Shown here one piece after another: positions 4,047-24,245 of a DNA stretch of 25,193 nucleotides. Origin of the DNA: Chiloscyllium plagiosum (lineage: Eukaryota); contig NC_057758.1 of assembly GCF_004010195.1 (NCBI RefSeq), forward strand, positions 719,396 through 744,588, read 5' to 3'. Each line of letters starts with the position of its first letter. Positions within the stretch are counted from its first letter, which is position 1. The position numbers were made by a program, and so were the translations under genes. A model generated the notes under the pieces. The model saw nothing but the letters and a program-made list of their open reading frames with translations, was not told the DNA's origin and made no database searches.

Positions 4047-4142
4047 CATCCAGCAAATGCAGGGAAATGTCAGAGTAATTGAAATATGTGTTCCTCTTTA
4101 GAACACTGTTAATAAGCAAAAAATCGACAATGTTATAGGAGC

Positions 4143-4240
4143 GGGGGCACCTAATGAAGGGCTTTTGCTCAAAACGTCGATTTTCTGCTCCTCAGATACT
4201 GCCTGAACTGCTGTGATTTTCCAGCACCACTCTAATCTAG
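4143..4240 (+). mobile_element. Short Penelope-like (pLTR-derived) insertion with mutated hammerhead core
   Basis: CTAATGA-AGGGC-TTTT-GCTC-AAAAC-GTC is a decayed CUGAUGA..GAAAC-GUC. Flanked by a 14-bp direct repeat, AATGTTATAGGAGC (4129-4142) and AATGTTATATGAGC (4241-4254). Confidence 0.75.
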
Positions 4241-4577
4241 AATGTTATATGAGCATTCAAGATACATCGAACATTCATGGTCATTCATTCACTTTCTTTA
4301 ACTCAATCTAATTTCGCCCATTCTTAGAAGTTGGAGTATTTTATTTTATTGCAACATTTAGGTGTAGGTCCAAGAACACTTCAAAACTCGACATCAACCA
4401 AGGCAAACAAGTCGCTTTATTGGCCCCACATTGACAAGTATCACGCCCTACACCACAGTGTGCACCATCTCCAAGATACAACACAGAAATTCATGAATGA
4501 TCCTTACACAGTACCTTCCAAGATGAAAATGTGTTGCTGGAAAAGCACAGCAGGTCAGCAAGCATCCAAGGAGCAGG

Positions 4578-4618
4578 ACAATCGACGTTTCGGGCATGAG
4601 TCCTTCTTCAGGAATTCC
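4578..4618 (-). ncRNA. Minimal type I hammerhead ribozyme motif (core intact, one stem II mismatch)
   Basis: Minus strand reads GGAATTC-CTGAAGA-A-GGAC-TCAT-GCCC-GAAA-CG-TC-GATT. Confidence 0.6.
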
Positions 4619-4651
4619 TGAAGAAGGGCTCACGCCCGAAGCGTCGATTCC
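4611..4651 (+). ncRNA. Minimal type I hammerhead ribozyme motif (GAAA mutated to GAAG)
   Basis: GGAATTC-CTGAAGA-A-GGGC-TCAC-GCCC-GAAG-CG-TC-GATTCC. Stem II is intact and stem I is GGAAU(U)C/GAUUCC. Predicted cleavage after GUC at 4643-4645. Confidence 0.6.
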
Positions 4652-5140
4652 CCTGCTCCTTGGATGTTGCCTAACCTGCTGCACTTTTCCAGCAACACAT
4701 TTTCAGCTCTGATCTCCAGCATCTGCAGTCCTCACTTTCTCCACAGTACCTTCCAAACCAATGACCAACTGCATGTCGAAGGACAGCGAAGTGGTGAAAT
4801 AGGAACACCACCACATGAAAGATCCTCTCCAAAGCACTCACAATCATAAATGGGAAATATATCGCTGTTCGTTCAGTGCTGTTGGCTGAAAATCCTGGAA
4901 AACCATCCAGAATGTCATCCTGCAGTTCGTGAACTGCAGCTCACGACCACTCTCTCAAGTGCCAGAAGAAATGCTGACTAGCGAACGGCACCCATCTCCA
5001 CGAATGAATTCTTTTTAAAAATGAACAGCATCTGTCCATACCATTTTTCTGCAATCTGGCTGACTGTTGGAGTCATTGGAATGTGGAGGGAATACATTTT
5101 ATTCATAAAACAATGAGGCAGAAGAGCTGATTTCGACCCA

Positions 5141-5645
5141 GAGTCATAAGAAATAGAAACGACAGTACATGAATTGTCCCTTCGAAATACTCCATCCTTC
5201 AATAGATTATGACTGATCAGAGTCTCCTCAACCACACATTCCTGTGTTTTCTCTCTCATCCTTGATTCTCCTTTTCATCGGCGGCACGGTGGCACAGTGG
5301 TTAGCACTGCTGCCTCACAGCGCCAGAGACCCGGGTTCAATTCCCGCCTCAGGCGACTGACTGTGTGGAGTTTGCACGTTCTCCCCGTGTCTGCGTGGGT
5401 TTCCTCCGGGTGCTCCGGTTTCCTCCCACATCACAAAGATGTGCAGGGTCAGGTGAATTGGCCACACTAAATTGCCCGTAGCGCTAGGTAAGGGGTAAAT
5501 GGGTGGGTTTCGCTTCGGCGGGTCAGTGTGGACTTGTTGGGCCGAAGGGCCTGTTTCCACACTGTAATCTAATCTAATCTAATCTAATCACTAATCTCTA
5601 TTTCTCAGCCTTAACAGACAAGGACTCTTGCCCCACAGCCCATGC
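5141..5645 (-). mobile_element. Old CR1 LINE 3' terminal fragment, split by a SINE
   Basis: CATAAGAAATAG..GACTGATC..CCTTGATTC|..TCTCAGCCTT..CCACAGCC resembles a reverse-complemented shark CR1 3' UTR and the similar fragment at 7935-8450. Confidence 0.55.
5280..5589 (+). mobile_element. HE1-type tRNA-derived V-SINE, well conserved
   Basis: Pol III A box TGGCACAGTGG (5290-5300), B box GGTTCAATTCC (5334-5344), V-domain GTGTGGAGTTTGCACGTTCTCCCCGTGTCTGCGTGGGTTTCCTCCGG, LINE-like 3' end GGGCCGAAGGGCCTGTTTCC and (TAATC)n tail. Confidence 0.93.
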
Positions 5646-6300: not shown

Positions 6301-7197
6301 TTATTTAAACAATGTAACAATGAGGTTAAAAGGATATTTTATCCCGTTCATTAACTCCTCTCGGAATTTAGTCTGTGTTAGTGCATAAATGCAGGTATTG
6401 GTACATGAGCTTAAAAGACGGAGCATGAATCCAACTTGCTGTGCAACATATACTGGATCACTAATGGTTTTGTCTGAATAATTATAATTGATGATTTGCC
6501 AGTTTAACGAATGTACAAACGTACGTCATCCACAAACGTATAAAATTAGCAAACAAGGCAAAAAGCAAAATAATGGATTTCCTTCGATTCTCCATCTCTG
6601 GATCAAAACTACTCCCATGACATTGGAATCCCCTTCGGCATTGATTAGCTCTTATAATATTCTTGATGGTGAGACCATTGAACACCAAAATCAAGAAAAT
6701 AGGAAGTAACGGTGTTAGAATACTGTCGATCCACTCACATGTTGCCCAGAAAGGTGAGGTATAATAGTCTGGTCTTTGAATGCAAAACCATGGGAAATTG
6801 TCAATGATAATTGACGGAACAAATGGAAAGTACCAGACAGTAGACCTTAAACAGCTGATAACTGCCGCAATTGCTATCACCATAGTTGCAGTTTTCTCAG
6901 TACAATATTTTAATTTAAACTTCTGGGAACAAATGGCTACAAATCGATCAAATGTGAAAGCTACTGTGAACCAAACAGAGCAGTCGAGAGCTGCAAGCAA
7001 CAAGACAGCTCTCATAGCACACACCGGAGTGATGAACAAAAAGGTGAGCGGGAAATAAATGTTATTAATTCGATTCATTATGATATTAATGATGACTAGT
7101 AGTAAATCTGCTACTGACATCGCCATCAGGTAACGGGTAATGCATTTGGAGAGACCACAGTTTCCTCGATAGAAGATCACAAGCGCCAGTAAATTAA
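6301..7197 (-). CDS. GPCR coding exon 2 (TM1-TM7), frameshifted near 6518
   Basis: Acceptor CCTTTCTTTCAG|TT. DRF motif in TM3. TM7 NTCIY and helix 8 KFREEL are in the shifted frame. TAA at 6301-6303. Confidence 0.85.
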
Positions 7198-7934
7198 CTG
7201 AAAGAAAGGCAACAAAATGGACAAGCTTTAGCTGTCAACACTACATGAATGTATCTTTAGCCTTATCAAATTTAGGGTGGCAGTTGTGGACCAATTATTA
7301 AATGCTTTCAGTTCAATGTGAAGATGAATAATATTACAATATTCGCCAGTAGGAATTTATTGTATGACCAAATGAACAAATCAAACTGAATCAAAGTAAA
7401 TCACAATAGAAATCTGAACAATTAGAGGATGTAATAAGTCCTGTCAATAAAATGCAGCGATTTGAATCGTACAGCAATCATAATTCATTGAATATTTCAT
7501 AAATACAGTTTGATATTTTAAATCTTACATTGTCAATTTGTGAAGGATAACATAATTCACTCCAGTTTCTAATACGAGAGCTAAAATTACAAAGGCATAT
7601 TTTTCTGTATCCAGCTAGGGCATATAAATGCTTATATTTTCCTACTGGCTGAACTTTCTGAAAACATTCAAAACCATAAACATGTCAATTCGGCATAACT
7701 GAGAGTCACGAATCTGTCAATGTGTGTTGTTAGTATTTTCTCTGTTGCTTCCAGTACTGGGATATCTTCGAATATAAAAGTGATGATCTCACCTCAGGAG
7801 AATCAACAAACAATTAACAATAAAAAAGGAGTCAAGGATTGCAAATAAACATTAGATAAAACTACAAAGTCAATCATGAATCATATTTAGCGGTCACATC
7901 AATAAAATTAACAAATATATTTTTCAAAATTTTA

Positions 7935-8942: not shown

Positions 8943-9291
8943 GCGTGACTTGGTGGCTCAATGGTTAGCACTGCTGCCTTACAGTTCCATGGATTTGGGT
9001 TTAATCCCAGTATTGGGTGACTGTCTATGTGGAGTTTGTACATTCACCATGTGTCTGCGTGAGTTCCTTCTGAGCGCCCCAGTTCACTCCCACAAGCCAA
9101 AGTTGCGTGGGCTGCGAGAATTGGTTGTGCTACTTTGCCTATAGCGTTCAGGGATGTGTAGGTCAGCTGCATTAATCAGGTGTAAATGAGGAGTAATAGA
9201 GTAGGGAATTGGTCTGAATGGATTGCTCTTTGCAGGATCAATCTGACCTGTTGGACCAAATGGACTTTTTCTGCAGTGTCGGAAGGCCATG
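8943..9291 (+). mobile_element. Old, diverged HE1-type V-SINE
   Basis: TGGTGGCTCAATGGTTAGCACTGCTGCCT..GTGGAGTTTGTACATTC..GTGTCTGCGTG aligns with the SINE at 5280. Confidence 0.85.
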
Positions 9292-10040
9292 GTTACGTGT
9301 TTTGATGATCAATGATACTACTTAGCCACAACTGACAACCACGTGGATGTCTTACGTCTACATGAAATGTTAATCTGCAGTAAGTTTGCTTTTAATCGAC
9401 ATTTCATACTTCCCTTTAAAGTATTGTTTTGAGAGATGCCCAAATATTCTTTGAAATTCATTATCTCATAAACTAAATCCAAGAAGCTCCATTTGCAGAT
9501 GTGTTGGGAGGGCAAAATTCCAGGAAAATAACATGTGATACAGGATCATACAGGATTATTCCAATATTGTACGCTTCATAAGAAAAAAGGTTAAAATTGA
9601 ATTTTGATATCAGAAAAGTCATTTTCGATTCTCAAATGTGACAACAGTGGCCAATATAATATCACAACATATTAAACATTTAAACTCTCCAGCAAGCATG
9701 AACAATCACCGCAGCAATATAGTAATGCGGGGCATGCTGCAAACTTCTTTGACATCACTTGTGAAACTCACTACATCACCAGCGACAGGTATAAGAGTAG
9801 TTCACGCCAGCACTGGAATTTTCATTGAGTCTCAAATTGCTCTCAATCTGGGCAATACTTCCTGTAGAACATGAGGACTTTTGCATTATTAAGCTCAGCG
9901 GTTCATCAATCATGCTGTTATATGACCAAAGATAATCAACTCCAAAAAAATCGAAGCAAATTGACTTTTTTAAAATCAAGGGATATAAATACACTACCCA
10001 TTTGTCGAGTGCTAACCATACTTAAGACGCAGATATAAAA

Positions 10041-10300
10041 GAAAACAAAGCATTTGAGATGCTGGAGATCTAAAAACAACATTGAAAAGCGATAAATTGC
10101 TGCAACAATTCGGGTGGTGACGAAACATTAGTATAGAGAGAAACTGATGTAATGTCTCAAGTTTGCTGACCCTTCTTTAGAAATTCAAACAGTTCAGTAC
10201 GGGTGGTATTTATGCCACTGATGGCGATTTGGGTGGGATGGGTGGAACTGAGAGGTTTAGATGGAGGTGAAGCCCAGACTGAGAGTTAGAGGCAGAGAGA
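10041..10300 (-). mobile_element. Decayed Penelope-like pLTR remnant (may continue at ~11690-11860)
   Basis: GATGCTGGAGATC is the reverse complement of GATCTCCAGCATC in the 4522 element. GACCCTTCTTTAG is a decayed reverse-strand hammerhead core. Confidence 0.5.
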
Positions 10301-11086: not shown

Positions 11087-11683
11087 TTTCCTCCGGGTGC
11101 TCCGGTTTCCCCTCACAGTCCAAAGATGTGCAATTCAGGTGAATTAGCCATGCTAAGTTGGGGTTGGTGACGATTCGCCATGGCACATTCGTCGCTGCCG
11201 TTTAGCCACTGCCAGTTTGCCGCCAGCGTTTCTCCACTGGGGTCGTTTGACCTCTGGAGACTATTCGCCACCGGAAAAAAAAAATATATATATATATGTG
11301 TGTTGATTGTTTTCCCTCCCGCCTGCTCTTTCATACTTCTCAGTCCCCTTTTCATTATACAACAACATAGTACATATTGATAAAAAAAGAGGTGAAATAA
11401 ATATCATTTTATTGGTTTATTCATAAAAATGGGTTACAAACACATGCAGTGGCGAATCGTCCACAGCGGCCAATGGGTGGTGGCGAAGCGTCCTCAGCGG
11501 TAAAAGGGCAGTGGCTACTCGGTGGCGGCGAATGGTCCCATCCCGGTTAAATTGACCATAGTGTTAGGTGCCTGATCAGGGAGAAATATGGGGAATGAGG
11601 CTGGGTGAGTTGCTCTTCAGAGGGTCGGTGTGGACTTGTTGGGCCGAAGGGGCTATTTCAATACTGTAGGATATCTAATCTAA
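11087..11683 (+). mobile_element. 5'-truncated HE1-type SINE split by a DNA-transposon-like insertion
   Basis: TTTCCTCCGGGTGCTCCGGTTTCC..GCCATGCTAA|..|ATTGACC..GGACTTGTTGGGCCGAAGG..TCTAATCTAA. Confidence 0.85.
11157..11547. mobile_element. Non-autonomous DNA transposon (MITE-like), superfamily unassigned
   Basis: Cleanly interrupts the SINE with a TAA (or TA) duplication at 11154-11156 and 11548-11550. Imperfect TIRs (GGGTTGGTGACGATTCGCC vs GGCGAATGGTCCCATCCC). TTCGCCA motifs on the left, GGCGAA on the right, AT-rich core. Confidence 0.7.
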
Positions 11684-12019
11684 ACTCCAACTAAAGTGAA
11701 AACATCTGAAGGGATTGCTCATGATAGATTTGGGAGATGAGCAAATGCTCAGTTGGTACTAATGGGGAGAGACAAAGTTGAAACTCGGACGGCTTTGCTG
11801 AGATCAACCTGAAATTTGTTTGTGGGTGGGTAACAGCGGAAGTTACTCATGCTCTCTAATTGCGGCCAGCATAGCTAAGATAGATCAACAGTAATCCAGT
11901 ACATGTTTGTGTTCTAGAATTTATCATATCAATAACGGCACTGCAAAATAATGGTAAAAACATGTACATGATGATGAATTGAATCTGTCAGTTGAATCAA
12001 AGTGAGATCCTGTCATGGT

Positions 12020-13695: not shown

Positions 13696-14572
13696 TATTA
13701 TAGACTAAGCCTGACCTCTCAAAACATTCTTAAGCGTGCAGCTTAAGCGATAACTTTGCAATTTTTTCATTGAGTGTACCCGGATGAAGCTAGCTGGGTT
13801 TACTGCTAGATTTTAAAACAGACAGAAAATTATTCATAAAGCAACACGATGAAACACAAAACATAGAATAAAGAAACACATCAGAACTCAACCAATCCAA
13901 CTAGACTTAATTATCCTGTTCTGAATACACACAACAGCCCTAATAACAAAACTCCCTTTGAAACAAAAAATGAAAATGGAACACATGCTTACAGGTTTAT
14001 GTTGAAGGGCAGAAAAAGAGACAGATTTTCCAGACACTCCCTGTCGAACTTCCAACCAGTTCAAGACGGAACTAAACTGCTCAGCTCAGCTGGAGAGCTG
14101 ACCACTCCCCTTTCGTTATCCATGTCACTTCTAAAACATGACCACTTTCGCCTGAAGTCTCATCTGGTTACAAATAAACAAAAGGCATCTAAAAATCCTT
14201 TTTCATCTCTATAGCAAACCAGACTGATCAGAGCCTGGCCCACTTTATTACCCCTCCGAAAAAGTGCAGGATAGACTATGCTTGAGTTGACAGTGTGTTG
14301 TTGGAAAAGCACAACAGGTCAGGCAACATCCGACGAGCAGGAAAAACGACGTTTCGGGTCAGAGACCTTCATCAGGAATAACACTGGGAACCTTGGATGT
14401 GAACTGAACTGAAATGTTAATTTTCCTGCTCCTCGGATGCTGCCTGACCTGCTGCACTTTTACAGCAATATGCTCTCAACTCTGATCTCCAGCATCTGCG
14501 GACTTCACTGCCACAAGAGTTTGTTTGAGGCAAGAAACAACTTTTAGAAAAAAAGGGACAAGGTTTGTGGCA
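13696..14572 (-). repeat. 3' LTR (contains a Penelope-like insertion)
   Basis: TATTATAGACTAAG..AGGTTTGTGGCA, collinear with 22398-22987. Confidence 0.85.
14287..14515. mobile_element. Second palindromic Penelope-like insertion with a minus-strand hammerhead motif
   Basis: Absent from the 5' LTR. Inverted arms like the 4522 element. Minus strand CTGATGA-A-GGTC-TCT-GACC-C-GAAAC-GTC (~14348-14375). Degenerate 14-bp TSD at 14273-14286 and 14516-14529 (11/14). Confidence 0.78.
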
Positions 14573-15110: not shown

Positions 15111-17110
15111 ATAGAACATAGAACAATACAGCACAGAACAGGCCCTTCAGCCCACGATGTTGTGCCGAACATTTTCCTAGCTTAAGCACCCATCCATGTA
15201 CATATCCAATTACCGCTTAAAGGTCGCCAATGGGTCTGACTCTGCCACTCCCACAGGCAGCGCATTCCATGTCCCCACCACTCTCTGGGTAAAGAACCTA
15301 CCCCGACATCCTCCCTATACCTTCCATCCTTCAACTTAAATTTATGTCCGGTTGTAACACTCTGTTGTACCCGGGGAAAACGTTTCTGACTGTTTATTCT
15401 ATCTATTCCTCTGATCATCTTATAAACCTCTATCAAGTCACCACTCATCCTTCGCAGTTCCAATGAGAAAAGGCCTAGCACTCTCAACCTTTCCACGTAC
15501 GACCTATTCTCCATTCCAGGCAACATCCTGGTAAATCTTCTCTGCTCTCTCTCCAAAGCTTTCACATCTTTCCTAAAGTGAGGCGACCAGAACTGCACAC
15601 AGTACCACAAATGTGCCCTAACCAAGGTCCGAAACACCTGCAACATCACCTCACGACTCTTGAATTCAATCCCTCTGTTAATGAACGCTAATACACCACA
15701 GGCCTTCTTACAAGCACTATCCACCTGAGTGGCAACTTTCAAAGATCTTTTAACATAGACCCCAAGATCCCTCTACTCCTCCACCTTACTAAGAACCCTA
15801 TCGTTAACCCTATATTCTGCATTCTTATTTGTCCTTCCAAAGTGGACAACCTCACACTTGACAGGGTTGAAGTCCATCTGCCACTCCTCAGCCCAGCTCT
15901 GCATCATTTCGAGGTCACTTTGCAGCCGACAACAGCCCTCCTCACTATCCACAACTCCACCAATCTTCGTATCATCTGCAAATTTACTGACCCACCCTTC
16001 GACGCCCTCTTCCAAGTCATTAATAAAAATTACAAACAGCAGAGGACCCAGAACTGATCCCTGCGGAACTCCACTTGTAACTGGTCTCCAGGCAGAATAT
16101 TTACCATTTACCACCACTCTCTGAGTTCGACCAGTTAGCCAGTGTTCTATCCAACTGGCCAAATCTCCCTCTATCCTATGCCTCCTGACATTCTGCATAA
16201 GCCCACCATGGGGAACCTAATCAAATGCCTTACTAAAATCCATGTACACGACATCCACTGCTCTACCCTCATTCACATGCTTGGTCACCTCCTGAAAGAA
16301 TTCAATAAGACTGTAAGGCAAGACCTACCCTTCACAAATCCGTGCTGGCTGTCCCTAATCAAGCAGTGTCTTTCCAGATACTCATAAATCCTATCCCTCA
16401 GTACCCTTTCCATTATATTGCCTACCATCGAAGTAAGACATATTGGCCGGAAATTCCCGGGGTTATCCCTATTCCCTTTTTTGAACAGGGGCACAGCATT
16501 CACCACTCTCCAGTCTCCTGGTACCACCCCCTTTGACATTGAAGACGAAAAAATCATTGCCAACGGCTCTGCAATTTCCTCTCTTGCTTCCCACATAATC
16601 CTAGGATATATCCCGTCAGACCCGGGGGACTTGTCTATCCTCGAGTTGTTCAAAATGTCCAACACATCTTCCTTCCTAACATGTATCTCCTCTAGCTTAC
16701 CCGTCTGTTTCACACTCTCCTCTTCAACAATACGGTCCCTCTCATTCGTAAATACTGAAGGAAAGTATTCATTCAAGACCTCTCCTATCTCTTCCGACTC
16801 AATACACAGTCTCCCACTACTGTCCTTGATCGGACCTACCCTCGTTCTCGTCATTCTCATGTTTCTCACATACGCATAAAATGCCTTGGGTTTATCCTTG
16901 ATCTTATAGCCTAAGATTTTTCATGCCCTCTCTTAGCTCTCCTAATTACTTTCATCAGCTCCCTTCTGGCTATCCTGTATCCCTGCAACGCTCTGTTTGA
17001 ACTTTGTTTCCTTAACCTTATGTAAACCTCCTTCTTCCTCTTTACAAGACATTCAACCTCCGATCGTCAACCAAAGTTCCCTCACACGACCATTTCTTTC
17101 CTGCCTGACA

Positions 17111-17347
17111 GGTACATACATATCAAGGACACGTTGTATCTGGTCCTTGAAAAAGTTCCACATTTCCACGAGATCCTTCCCTGACAGCCTCTGCTCCCAA
17201 CTTATGCTCCTCAGATCCTGTCTTACAACCGGTACATACATATCAAGGACACGTCGTATCTGGTCCTTGAAAAAGTTCCACATTTCCAAGACATCCTTCC
17301 CTGACAGCCTCTGCTCCCAACTTAAGCTCCTCAGATCCTGTCTTACA
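17111..17347. repeat. 120-bp tandem duplication inside LINE ORF2
   Basis: 17111-17227 vs 17231-17347, 4 mismatches. Confidence 0.95.
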
Positions 17348-17552
17348 GCATCGAATTTACCCTTCCCCCAATTGTAAAACCTACTCTGTTGCACGCACCT
17401 ATCTCTCTCCATAACCAAGGTGAAAGTCACAGAATTGTGGTCACCATCACCAAAATATTCACCCACTAACAAGCCCATCACTTGTCCCGGATAGTTACCA
17501 AGTACCAAATGCAATATGGCCTCCCCTCTGGTCGGACAATCTATATACTGAG

Positions 17553-17624
17553 GTGGTTGAAACTTTATTGCTGGAACAGCACAGCAGGTCAGGCAGCATC
17601 CAGGGAACAGGAGATTCGACGTTC
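17553..17624 (-). mobile_element. 72-bp Penelope-like fragment flanked by a 41-bp perfect direct repeat
   Basis: GCTGGAACAGCACAGCAGGTCAGGCAGCATCC..TCGACGTT matches the arm of the 4522 element. Repeat at 17512-17552 = 17625-17665. Confidence 0.85.
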
Positions 17625-18283
17625 CAATATGGCCTCCCCTCTGGTCGGACAATCTATATACTGAGTTAGAAAAGCTTCCCGGATACACTGCACAAACAAC
17701 GCCCCATCCAATCTACTTGATCTAAAGAGCTTCCAATCAATATTTGCCCCCTCCTTTTTTACCACCCTCCCTAATCTTACTGAAACATCTGTAACCAGGA
17801 ACCTTCAACAACCATTCCTGTCCCTCTTCCATCCATGTTTCCGTAACGGCCACAACATCGTAGACCAAGGTACCGATCCATGCCTTAAGTTCACCCACCT
17901 TATTTCTGATACTCCTTGCGTTGAAATATAAACACTTGAAACCATTTCTGTGTCCGCAAGTATTCCCTGTCAGTGCTACCTTCTCCACAGCCTCCCTACA
18001 TTCTTGGACATCCTGACAAACTGCTAGCCTATTTGTTGGACTACAAGTCCGGATCCCACCCCCGTGCCAAATTAGTTTGAACTCCAAATTAGTTAGAGTG
18101 GTAGCAAACCTACCTCCCAGGATATTGGTGCCCTTCTGGTTCAGGTGCAACCCGTCCTGCTTGTACAGGTCCCACCTTCCCAGAATGCAGTCCAATTGTC
18201 CAAATACCTGAAGCCTCCTTCACCATCCTTGCAGCCACGTGGTCAACTGCACTCTCTCCCTATTCCTTGCCTCACTGTCACGT

Positions 18284-19200
18284 GCATCGATAGCCACCTT
18301 GAAAGGCTTCGTGCAATCGAGTGTGGCTAATATTAGGGCCGTGGATAAATACAGTTTTGGGGCTGTCAAATGTCTTTTGATTGCCCTCTGACCACTGAAA
18401 CTCTTGGCTTTTTTTAACAATTCGGCGAGTGGAGGAGCCACGCTGCTGAAGTTCGGCATAAACTTTTGGTAAAATCCACTCAGCCCTTGGATCTGCTGAG
18501 GCACTGCTTTTCTTGTCGATAGCAGGGGAAATTCCCCAATTATTTTCATTTTCGCATCCCGTGAGGCTGTTTATCCACGTCCAAAAACATGGCCCAGGAA
18601 GTTGACTTGGGCTTTGGTAAATTAACTTTTTGCTAGGTTTACCACCAAGCCTGCCTTCCGAATTTGATCGAGTAGGTCCGATAAATCCCGCAAATGCTTC
18701 TTTTATGAATGACTAAATATCACGAGGTCATCAATATATACCACACAGCTGGGTAATCCGGCAGTGACCTTATTAGCCAAACTCTGAAATGTGGCTGGAG
18801 CGTTTTTCACACGAAATGACTTAGGACTGATAGTCCATTTGACGCCACGAAAGGCAAAATTGCCTTTGCTCTTGATGACAGAGGTAGTTGCGAGTTGCCT
18901 CTGAGCAAGTCCAACTGGGCAATGTAAGTTGTAAGTTCCAGGTTTTTCGACATAGTCCTCCAAACGTGGAAATGCATCAGTCTTTGTAACGGCGTTGACT
19001 TTAAGGTCGTCCACACAGAACCGTTGGTTACCACCTGGCTTTGGCACCATGAGTATCGGTGAGCTCCAATCACCGCAACTCACTTCGATTATGCCATGCG
19101 TTCTATTTCCTTCTGAAACTGTACCAACTTTAGAGGGTTCTGCTTAATCGGAACAGCATTTTCTATATCCACATCACGCACAAGTTGGTTAGTACTTCCC
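18284..19200 (-). pseudogene. Gypsy reverse transcriptase remnant and first residues of RNase H
   Basis: WSSPILMVPKP..RFCVDDLKVNAVT, LDLLRG, KNAPATFQ, VYIDDLVIFS, KPFKVAIDA. Confidence 0.9.
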
Positions 19201-19399
19201 AGTTAATTTCTGCATGTCTCCCCATGTGATAGTAATAATTCTTTCAGATCCATTTCGATTTTGTTGTGCAAGGTAACTCAAAAATTCATCCCAATTTTTG
19301 GCATCTTCCTCATTGTTCAATTTGATTTGAGGAATGTCCAATTTGGAATCCTCTGAACTTGGTTCTTACTTCTGAGTTGTAATCATTAATAACTTGTCC

Positions 19400-20800
19400 T
19401 GTTGCTTTCCTTCCCTATCAAAATACATTCTGAACTGATTCACATGACACACTCTGTGAGATTGCTTCCTGTCTCCAGTCCTTTTCAGGTAGATCACCAC
19501 AGTCAGTTTCTTCTTAATTTGAAAAAGTCCACTAAACCAGGCTTTTAAAGGCTCACCTGTTACTGGAAATAACACCAATACCTTAACCATATTGCAAAAT
19601 TGCGCATTTGTGATTTCTGATCTTATTTTGTTCGTTATTTTCCGTGATACGTTAAAATGCAGTCTAGTCAACCCTCCAGCTCTAATTTCCCTGAAATGGG
19701 ACATATAGTTCAAATGGGTGGTCTCTGAATTTGGGCTTATAATTTCTCCTTAATCAATTTTAACAGTCCTCTTACTTCATGCCCCAAAATTAATTCAAAT
19801 TGACTAAACTTGATCGATATATTCGGGTGCATGTCTGATTCACAAAAAGTACAAATAGCATGCCCTTATTGCAATCATCTGGAAAATCCTGACCATAAGC
19901 CCTCAACATAGTCTTTTCTGTTTGAAGCCATCTCTCCACTGCTTTCTGCGATTCTGGACGTTATGCAATAGATTTGAATTGCTTTATTGCCAAGTTATTC
20001 ATAATCTCCTTGGATAGTTTGGTTGTGAACTTTGATCCTTGATCTGACTGGATCTCTATTGGTAGTCCATATCTAGTTAAAAAAAAACAATTATTCTACA
20101 AAACTTTTAGTTGTGTTGTTGCCTAATGGGATTGCCTCTGGAAATCTCATCGACAGATCCATTATTGTTAAGAAATACTCATTCCGACGTTTTTTTTTAG
20201 ATTAGATTACATTACAGTGTGGAAACAGGCCCTTCGGCCCAACAAGTCCACACCGACCCGCCGAAGCGAAACCCACCCATACCGGAAACCGGAGCACCCG
20301 GAGGAAACCCACGCAGACACGGGGAGAACGTGCAAACTCCACACAGTCAGTCGCCTGAGGCGGGAATTGAACTCGGGTCTCAGGCGCTGTGAGGCAGCAG
20401 TGCTAACCACTGTGCCACCGTGCCGCCCCTACGTTGTTTTACGTAGGGGAACGACGCAATCAATCAAGACTCTTATGAAAGTTTGCTCAAATGCTGGAAT
20501 AGGTATTAAAGGTGCAGGTTTTAATACTGCCTGTGGTTTTCGGATTAGCTGATATGTATGACACGTCTGGCAAAACACATCTATTCCTTCGTGTAGTCCA
20601 GGCCAGTAAAAATGTCTTTGTATTTTAGCCTGTGTTTTCCTCCCCAAAATGACCTTCAAGTGGTAGCTCATGCACCACTCGCAGCACTTCCTTTCCATAC
20701 CCGACTGGCAAAACAATTAGATGAATCTCGGCCTATTTCTCATCGACTTGAATGTGTGATGGTCTCCATTTCCTCATTAAGGTATCATTTCTGAAGCAAT
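19400..20800 (-). pseudogene. Integrase remnant (Zn-binding + DDE core + C-terminal domain)
   Basis: KTQAKIQRHFYWPGL..CQTCHTYQ, RVLIDCVVPL, RFPEAIPL, YGLPIEIQSDQGSKF, AVERW, RVCHVN. Confidence 0.88.
20197..20427 (-). mobile_element. HE1-type V-SINE with an internal deletion, inserted in the integrase
   Basis: Near-identical to the reverse complement of 5280-5589 but lacks the segment between CCGGTTTCC and ATGGGTGGG. (TAATC)n-type tail. Confidence 0.92.
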
Positions 20801-23879: not shown

Positions 23880-24245
23880 CAAGACCCCAGGCCTAAAATG
23901 CATTATCTGACCTGAGATTTCACATTATACTGATTATAATTTAAGTTCTCTTCGGGCAGTGTCTTGAAAGACATTGTGTGATTTACACATTCAACAACTT
24001 AAACGGGAACTGATTAAAAACTGAGTAGCCATCTGGATTTGTTCAATACTTTCACATCAGTTATAAAACACTTTCACCTTTTACCTATAAATAATGTGTT
24101 CGATGTATTCTCTGTCACGAGTTACCTGAAGATGGAGCAGGCTCTGAACATTTGTGGTTTGGAATAAACCTGTTGGATTATAACACCGTGTCTTGTGAGT
24201 TTTCACTTTGTCCACGCCAGTCCAACACTGGCACCTCCACCTCAT
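23880..24245 (+). mobile_element. Penelope-like element 3' end/pLTR of a different family, decayed hammerhead
   Basis: CTGAAGA-T-GGAGC-AG-GCTCT-GAAC (24126-24149), then AATAAACCTGTTGGA..CAGTCCAACAC. The left boundary is approximate. Confidence 0.6.

Follow-up and report, generated by a model that had tools for sequence, protein, structure and literature searches.

We analyzed a window of 25,193 nucleotides from Chiloscyllium plagiosum (contig NC_057758.1, positions 719,396 to 744,588 of the forward strand; positions below are counted from its first letter), a repeat-rich stretch with LINE-type and LTR-type reverse transcriptase (RT) remnants. It harbors a short palindromic insertion bounded by a target-site duplication (TSD), which we assign, as probable, to the end of a Penelope-like element (PLE), with the following features:

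4507-4521, strandless: left TSD copy, 15 nt, or 14 nt if counted from 4508
4522-4615, minus strand: probable inverted, 5'-truncated PLE end module without tail (left arm), native family sequence being read from 4615 down to 4522
4584-4611, minus strand: minimal type I hammerhead motif with an intact core, in which T4601 disrupts one stem II pair
4614-4615, strandless: junction, a 2-nt self-complementary overlap (AT) shared by the two arms at their native 5' edges
4614-4707, plus strand: probable direct, 5'-truncated PLE end module (right arm), delimited by arm comparison and family contig ends
4618-4651, plus strand: minimal type I hammerhead motif (core to UC, 4618-4645), with GAA+G, A15.1 lost
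4708-4742, plus strand: unpaired tail of 33-35 nt, at one end only, without a partner in the hairpin
4742-4756, strandless: right TSD copy, matching 4507-4521

Elsewhere in the window lie relatives of this insertion and a receptor-like reading frame:

4150-4230: tailless, decayed single arm of this family; a possible 9-nt direct repeat lies at 4129 and 4241
6485-7234, minus strand: frame of 250 amino acids, stop to stop, matching 7tm_1 (rhodopsin-family GPCR; E 2.7e-13)
14284-14509: second inverted pair, from a sister subfamily (CUGAUGA core), with tail
17553-17624, minus strand: 72-bp family stub, without tail, inside a LINE remnant

The 7tm_1 frame may be an intronless receptor gene or a pseudogene. 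Broken LINE-type RT/endonuclease frames, together with LTR-type RT and integrase-zinc-finger remnants, occupy 93-1679, 15776-18219 and 18706-20716. Two young SINE-like repeats, 98-99% identical, are found at 5280-5580 and 20197-20427, the copy near 20,300 missing about 75 bp of its middle, and older copies of the same repeat at 8952-9105, 11087-11160 and 11602-11686. By alignment, the decayed repeats at 10040-10190 (minus) and 24125-24245 (plus) contain hammerhead-core-like words, and they presumably resemble the ends of other PLE families.

The original prediction described the insertion as a retrotransposed 220-bp unit with a perfect 15-bp TSD, made of 91-bp inverted arms. The two TSD copies are indeed identical at 15/15 nucleotides (rough chance of such a direct repeat, 2e-7) and bound an insert of 220 bp (4522-4741), although C4742 possibly belongs to the element itself, because family 3' ends fall at 4741-4743, and the duplication is then 14 or 15 nt long. 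The inverted arms were also recovered, with 11 mismatches over the 91-bp core (4524-4705), but the description had omitted the unpaired tail at one end (4708-4741). Over their full extent the arms abut at 4614/4615 with zero spacer and mismatch at 12 of 93 pairs, a second comparison giving 94 nt at 87% identity. The AT at 4614-4615 is the center of an 8-nt palindrome (4611-4618), and both arms end at the same 5' edge, 4 nt ahead of the hammerhead core. One duplication surrounds the inverted arm without tail and the direct arm with tail, as expected of a retrotransposed unit. Each arm deviates from the family letter at six of the 12 mismatches (4547 being read via its mirror site), a split that fits neutral decay, and the two have in common the minority family letter at 4631/4598; this shared letter and the equal split are as expected from one template followed by neutral decay.

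The mirror half could have been added later at the DNA level, either by fold-back repair or because another insertion landed in the 5' end of a copy that had one arm. The family is dense (four insertions in 25 kb), so that nested insertions happen, and repair also yields microhomology junctions. With both arms inside one TSD, equally decayed, and with a left arm that ends at the tail boundary, as in PLE units, we nevertheless hold such a history to be very unlikely. The flanks (4458-4517 and 4758-4847) are themselves multi-copy, with contig depths of hundreds to thousands; the target site therefore lies within another repeat, whose paralogues could serve as empty sites. No empty site was found among the 15 joints listed out of 485.

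Each strand of the insert reads CUGAAGA-A-stem II-GAA(A/G)-CG-UC. On the plus strand, CUGAAGA (4618-4624) is followed by the unpaired A4625, stem II (4626-4629/4634-4637), GAA+G (4638-4641), CG (4642-4643) and UC (4644-4645), with a predicted cut after 4645 and the 3' strand of stem I beginning at 4646. A relaxed core pattern was matched three times in the window against 0.03 expected, in agreement with the prediction of a PLE-type minimal hammerhead motif on each strand. Metazoan PLE minimal hammerheads combine CUGANGA, one unpaired base, a G-C-closed stem II, GAAA, a palindromic CG, UH and a short stem I (PMC4209133), and the motifs of the insert share this consensus: the family letters satisfy the core CUGANGA-N-stem II-GAAA-palindromic dinucleotide-UH, with one break in each arm here. 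G4641 (GAAG for GAAA), where the family has A, damages the plus motif, and T4601, where the family has C, costs the minus motif a stem II pair. These are the single damaging changes per arm noticed earlier; a strict scan of the whole window for minimal hammerheads returned 0 intact motifs, and the copy is probably inactive, as had been proposed, both motifs being damaged.

Minimal hammerheads occur mostly solo, opposite-strand pairs being reported 100-700 bp apart (PMC4209133), whereas the motifs of the insert abut (6 nt between cores), are both damaged and have a stem II of only 4 bp. Their native stem I is likewise weak (2 bp, a U-U mismatch and one A-U). The searched part of supplement file 2 of that study contains no shark row. 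None of the Rfam hammerhead families matched the insert at E up to 10, the absence of stem III being the probable reason. Rfam microRNA matches (best 44.4 bits, for a gathering score of 100) merely reflect the hairpin. In a covariation analysis limited to six arms, 73.8% of 42 stem cells were paired and 0/10 pairs had changed on both sides, pairing being no better than in shuffles and better than in slid registers.

The predicted potential to form a long dsRNA hairpin was borne out (-148.3 kcal/mol, z = -20.6; 0/200 shuffles equally stable). The companion claim, that a hammerhead would be presented whichever strand is transcribed, was not supported, the pairing probability of the hammerhead helices in equilibrium folds of the full RNA being 0.0 for either strand. 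In plus-strand transcripts, where the antisense arm is transcribed first, the stem II probability was likewise 0.0 at 11/11 chain lengths, in folds that describe equilibrium and not kinetics. Forcing the hammerhead helices costs 47.1 kcal/mol on the plus strand and 54.6 kcal/mol on the minus strand, against 4.4 kcal/mol for the direct arm alone. Any transcript of the insert contains one motif and its antisense only, and the proposed sharing of stem I between the motifs is therefore an overlap in DNA only. Since the opposite-strand motifs are never on one RNA in the same sense, there is no cis dimer, which minimal hammerheads need, their monomers being inactive and their tandem dimers weakly active (PMC4209133). 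If transcribed, the insert would be expected from these folds to yield a 93-bp dsRNA hairpin, not an active ribozyme, and this hairpin would be a likely ADAR substrate. No pile-up of RNA read ends was seen at the ribozyme cut site in one polyA single-cell library, which is uninformative on cleavage.

To place the insert within its family, the region 4398-4847 was compared with four runs, a subset of 24 listed runs, comprising the DNA of three organisms (A, that of the window, B and C) and one polyA single-cell RNA run. Matching contig pieces numbered 66,142, 68,544 and 59,734 in A, B and C, respectively; contig depth does not equal copy number. Contigs departing from the family into unrelated flanks numbered 2234, 2394 and 1886 at 4742, and 523, 595 and 465 at 4743; with thousands of departures at these two positions, the 3' end of the family is fixed. 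The consensus beyond it (from 4742 on) starts with TAGTT in all three DNA runs. Coming after a pyrimidine-rich tail, this could be a 3' splice acceptor of the parent element; a target preference could also explain it.

While 3' ends are fixed, copies are 5'-truncated at different points. At 4615, departures from the reference were found in 346, 327 and 279 contigs and in 321 RNA reads; the consensus behind them starts with GAGG at low agreement (0.35-0.53), and we read these departures as a mixture of copies continuing into the parent and copies beginning there. Because the parent sequence differs upstream of 4615, the native part of the center is limited to ATTCC (4614-4618), GGA (4611-4613) being sequence of the antisense arm, and the view of the center as a purpose-built stem I is unsupported. 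The outer end of the left arm is joined to the tail, on the other strand, in 11 of the 15 joints listed (of 485), as a single arm with a tail would give; among the listed joints, one arm plus tail is the commonest form of the family. Other junctions include 4554>4615, 4591>4715, 4607>4715, 4613>4717 and 4545>4614, and a 1-nt deletion at 4615 occurs in 12, 13 and 10 contigs. The exact center was crossed gaplessly, at 82-84% identity and flanked by 31 or more letters in both directions, by three of 24 listed pieces, from organisms A and C, the 24 being the longest of 199,862 and not a random draw. The center therefore recurs at other loci, probably owing to an accumulation of 5' ends at the base of stem I, and palindromic copies centered at 4614/4615 are a minority of those listed.

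These family data bear on the possibility that the insert is a MITE, a palindromic DNA transposon in which the hammerhead-like motif would be incidental. The size of about 200 bp, the near-perfect fold-back and the high copy number are in keeping with it, and a palindromic Harbinger family of about 200 bp is known in frog (PMC5625713). A TSD of 14-15 nt and a one-sided tail misfit terminal inverted repeats, however, most copies among those listed have one arm, their 3' end being fixed and their 5' end variable, and the core motif fits the PLE consensus; we thus consider a MITE origin extremely unlikely.

In our judgment, with a probability of about 0.8, the insert is a PLE end stub with head-to-head arms and represents the published unit of inverted end, end and tail in its shortest form. 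In PLE insertions, an inverted truncated copy lies adjacent to the element and a tail of 30-40 bp is confined to one end (PMC8557442, Fig. 2), and one described case displays an overlapping inverted pLTR, a 31-bp tail, a 9-bp TSD and palindromes at the junctions, for which self-priming was proposed (PMC3846280). Like the units of endonuclease-bearing (EN+) PLEs, the insert comprises an inverted truncated end beside a direct copy, overlapping head to head at a short palindrome, with a one-sided tail in the 30-40-bp range and one TSD around the whole. Unlike them, it lacks both a reading frame and a second direct pLTR, and its halves are cut to 93-128 nt; the TSD of 14-15 nt also compares with 8-10 bp in the Adineta cases quoted there, and the copy number here is very high. 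The pattern is already known for PLEs.

The PLE end stub reading is supported by the second pair in the window (14284-14509), whose left arm shares the 5' edge of the insert but whose junction differs: an unrelated spacer separates this arm from a damaged right one. The search for a TSD around this pair gave no duplication above 6 nt. The stub at 17553-17624 starts 6-7 nt upstream of the predicted cleavage site and was therefore not copied from cleaved RNA. It is flanked by a perfect 41-bp direct repeat (region 17512-17665), unusually long for a TSD.

As an end stub, the insert would be an integration product of an endonuclease-bearing PLE, reduced to the end module. The PLE protein would cleave the two target strands at positions 14-15 nt from each other, and reverse transcription would start from two sites bounding the tail, at about 4742 and 4707, on opposite target strands. 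We lean slightly toward a route in which the two cDNAs would stop at the common 5' edge and join via the self-complementary AT; nearly as probable is a route in which one cDNA would snap back at this AT and copy itself up to the tail boundary. By either route the mirror half would be built during insertion and the copy would have decayed afterwards, and the center would recur since the 5' edge would be a hot spot. Since sequence is present on both sides of the cut site, the ribozyme had not cut the template RNA.

In vitro, the PAc protein (Poseidon of Anolis) cuts both strands, initiates reverse transcription at two positions that flank the tail, and inserts independently of ribozyme cleavage (PMC11167929). 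The insert resembles it in its two candidate RT start sites bounding the tail, in an apparently uncleaved RNA and in that no RNA-seq ends are listed at the cut site. PAc is autonomous, with a reading frame starting in stem II, whereas no such frame is linked to the insert, and the parts covered of the PAc work do not reconstitute the head-to-head join (PMC11167929).

No GIY-YIG match was found in 40 reading frames scanned, selected from the 86 of the window. The 40-aa frame that spans arm and tail yielded no true relative in protein searches, and four candidates for a protein link gave 0 matches among longer proteins. Two matches from a representative protein library, one of them a P450, were repeat-inflated and unrelated. 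As no copy was linked to a PLE RT/GIY-YIG frame, membership in the PLEs rests on architecture and motif. A 30-nt arm motif had 0 matches in metagenomes and a 19-nt motif 0 matches in viral contigs; of 48 metagenome loci with the 19-nt motif, three had a BLAST match of 22-34 nt to the arm, none longer, and we attribute all 48 to chance. Outside Repbase/Dfam, no account of this particular family was found in the literature, a scope beyond which lie the supplements of the retrozyme preprint (one chondrichthyan) and supplement file 1 of PMC4209133, which may list it.

A separate palindromic family had originally been proposed. In this scenario, the family would be preformed and non-autonomous, a master hairpin RNA being mobilized whole by PLE proteins and the center inherited. 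The three listed pieces from other loci in organisms A and C that cross the center without a gap count in its favor, and this recurrence of the same center in two species would be expected from a preformed palindromic master as well. The clean insert ends and the TSD are also compatible with it, as is the minority letter at 4631/4598 in both arms, though one template RNA gives the same. Since junctions vary and most copies are single-armed, however, the outcome named in advance as refuting the proposal, inversion points that differ between copies, is largely but, given the recurring center, not completely borne out; among those listed, single-armed copies dominate and other junctions, including some shifted by 1 nt, occur, and the other inverted pair of the window has a different junction. 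At most 14/3503 RNA reads lie wholly within the stretch, for about 24% expected if all copies were palindromic, a figure weakened by adapter read-through, hairpin bias and editing, which all act against whole reads. A hairpin would moreover hide the arm, which may carry a protein-binding structure. The recurring center stands, and the separate family appears unlikely.

The same holds for a retrozyme-like version of this scenario. Non-LTR retrozymes (see also PMC7229834) are likewise short and non-coding, with a type I hammerhead, and derive from PLE ends (10.64898/2026.07.22.740005), and they are present in the one chondrichthyan sampled (10.64898/2026.07.22.740005). They are, however, by definition tandem direct repeats in which every unit has a hammerhead (10.64898/2026.07.22.740005), whereas the insert is an inverted pair, with no direct repeat of the unit nearby. 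An inverted pair therefore offers no cis dimer and no rolling-circle monomer, unlike retrozymes.

A check for A-to-I editing, proposed along with the original prediction, produced a hint at the level of the family and nothing specific to this locus. In the comparison, which lists 34 in-element differences (with a further 96 rows beyond those listed) from one RNA run with no matched DNA, four of the top five strand-biased differences are A-to-G in the ribozyme sense, the fifth resting on 4 reads. By strand, A-to-G amounts to 296/994 vs 32/633 at 4555, 72/250 vs 5/102 at 4640 (core A14; 0.03% of DNA depth in X3) and 68/195 vs 12/84 at 4632, and at 4641 (A15.1) the family A is read in 158/253 vs 96/105. 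Other types of change display a strand bias of up to about 2.6-fold. These strand-biased A-to-G differences, two of them in the catalytic core, suggest A-to-I editing of the family, not of this locus; such a bias could also stem from a small number of strongly expressed loci or from the way reads were assigned to arms. Editing of the family would be expected rather than surprising, because Penelope repeats in lizard are heavily edited, as are palindromic Harbinger repeats in frog (PMC5625713). The likeness lies in fold-back or inverted repeats serving as A-to-I substrates; the difference is that editing here is only suggested, at the family level, and on ribozyme core adenosines.

The editing hint also allows a bolder reading, which we regard as quite unlikely, in which a subset of the palindromic copies would be a self-propagating hairpin retroelement: the inherited center would silence the hammerhead by antisense pairing, ADAR would edit A14 and A15.1, and the edited RNA would be written back, G4641 being then a trace of this process. 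If true, self-propagating hairpins would be an Alu-like source of dsRNA in this lineage.

On the preferred reading as a PLE end stub, the single locus matters little, being a decayed insertion of a described pattern. The family is a usable natural dataset on how PLEs build head-to-head inverted ends: its thousands of short copies, with a common 5' edge and junction variants of 1-2 nt, could separate twin priming from snap-back. Editing of Penelope repeats has already been reported in lizard (PMC5625713), and the A-to-G signal, if confirmed, would represent host editing acting on PLE ribozymes.
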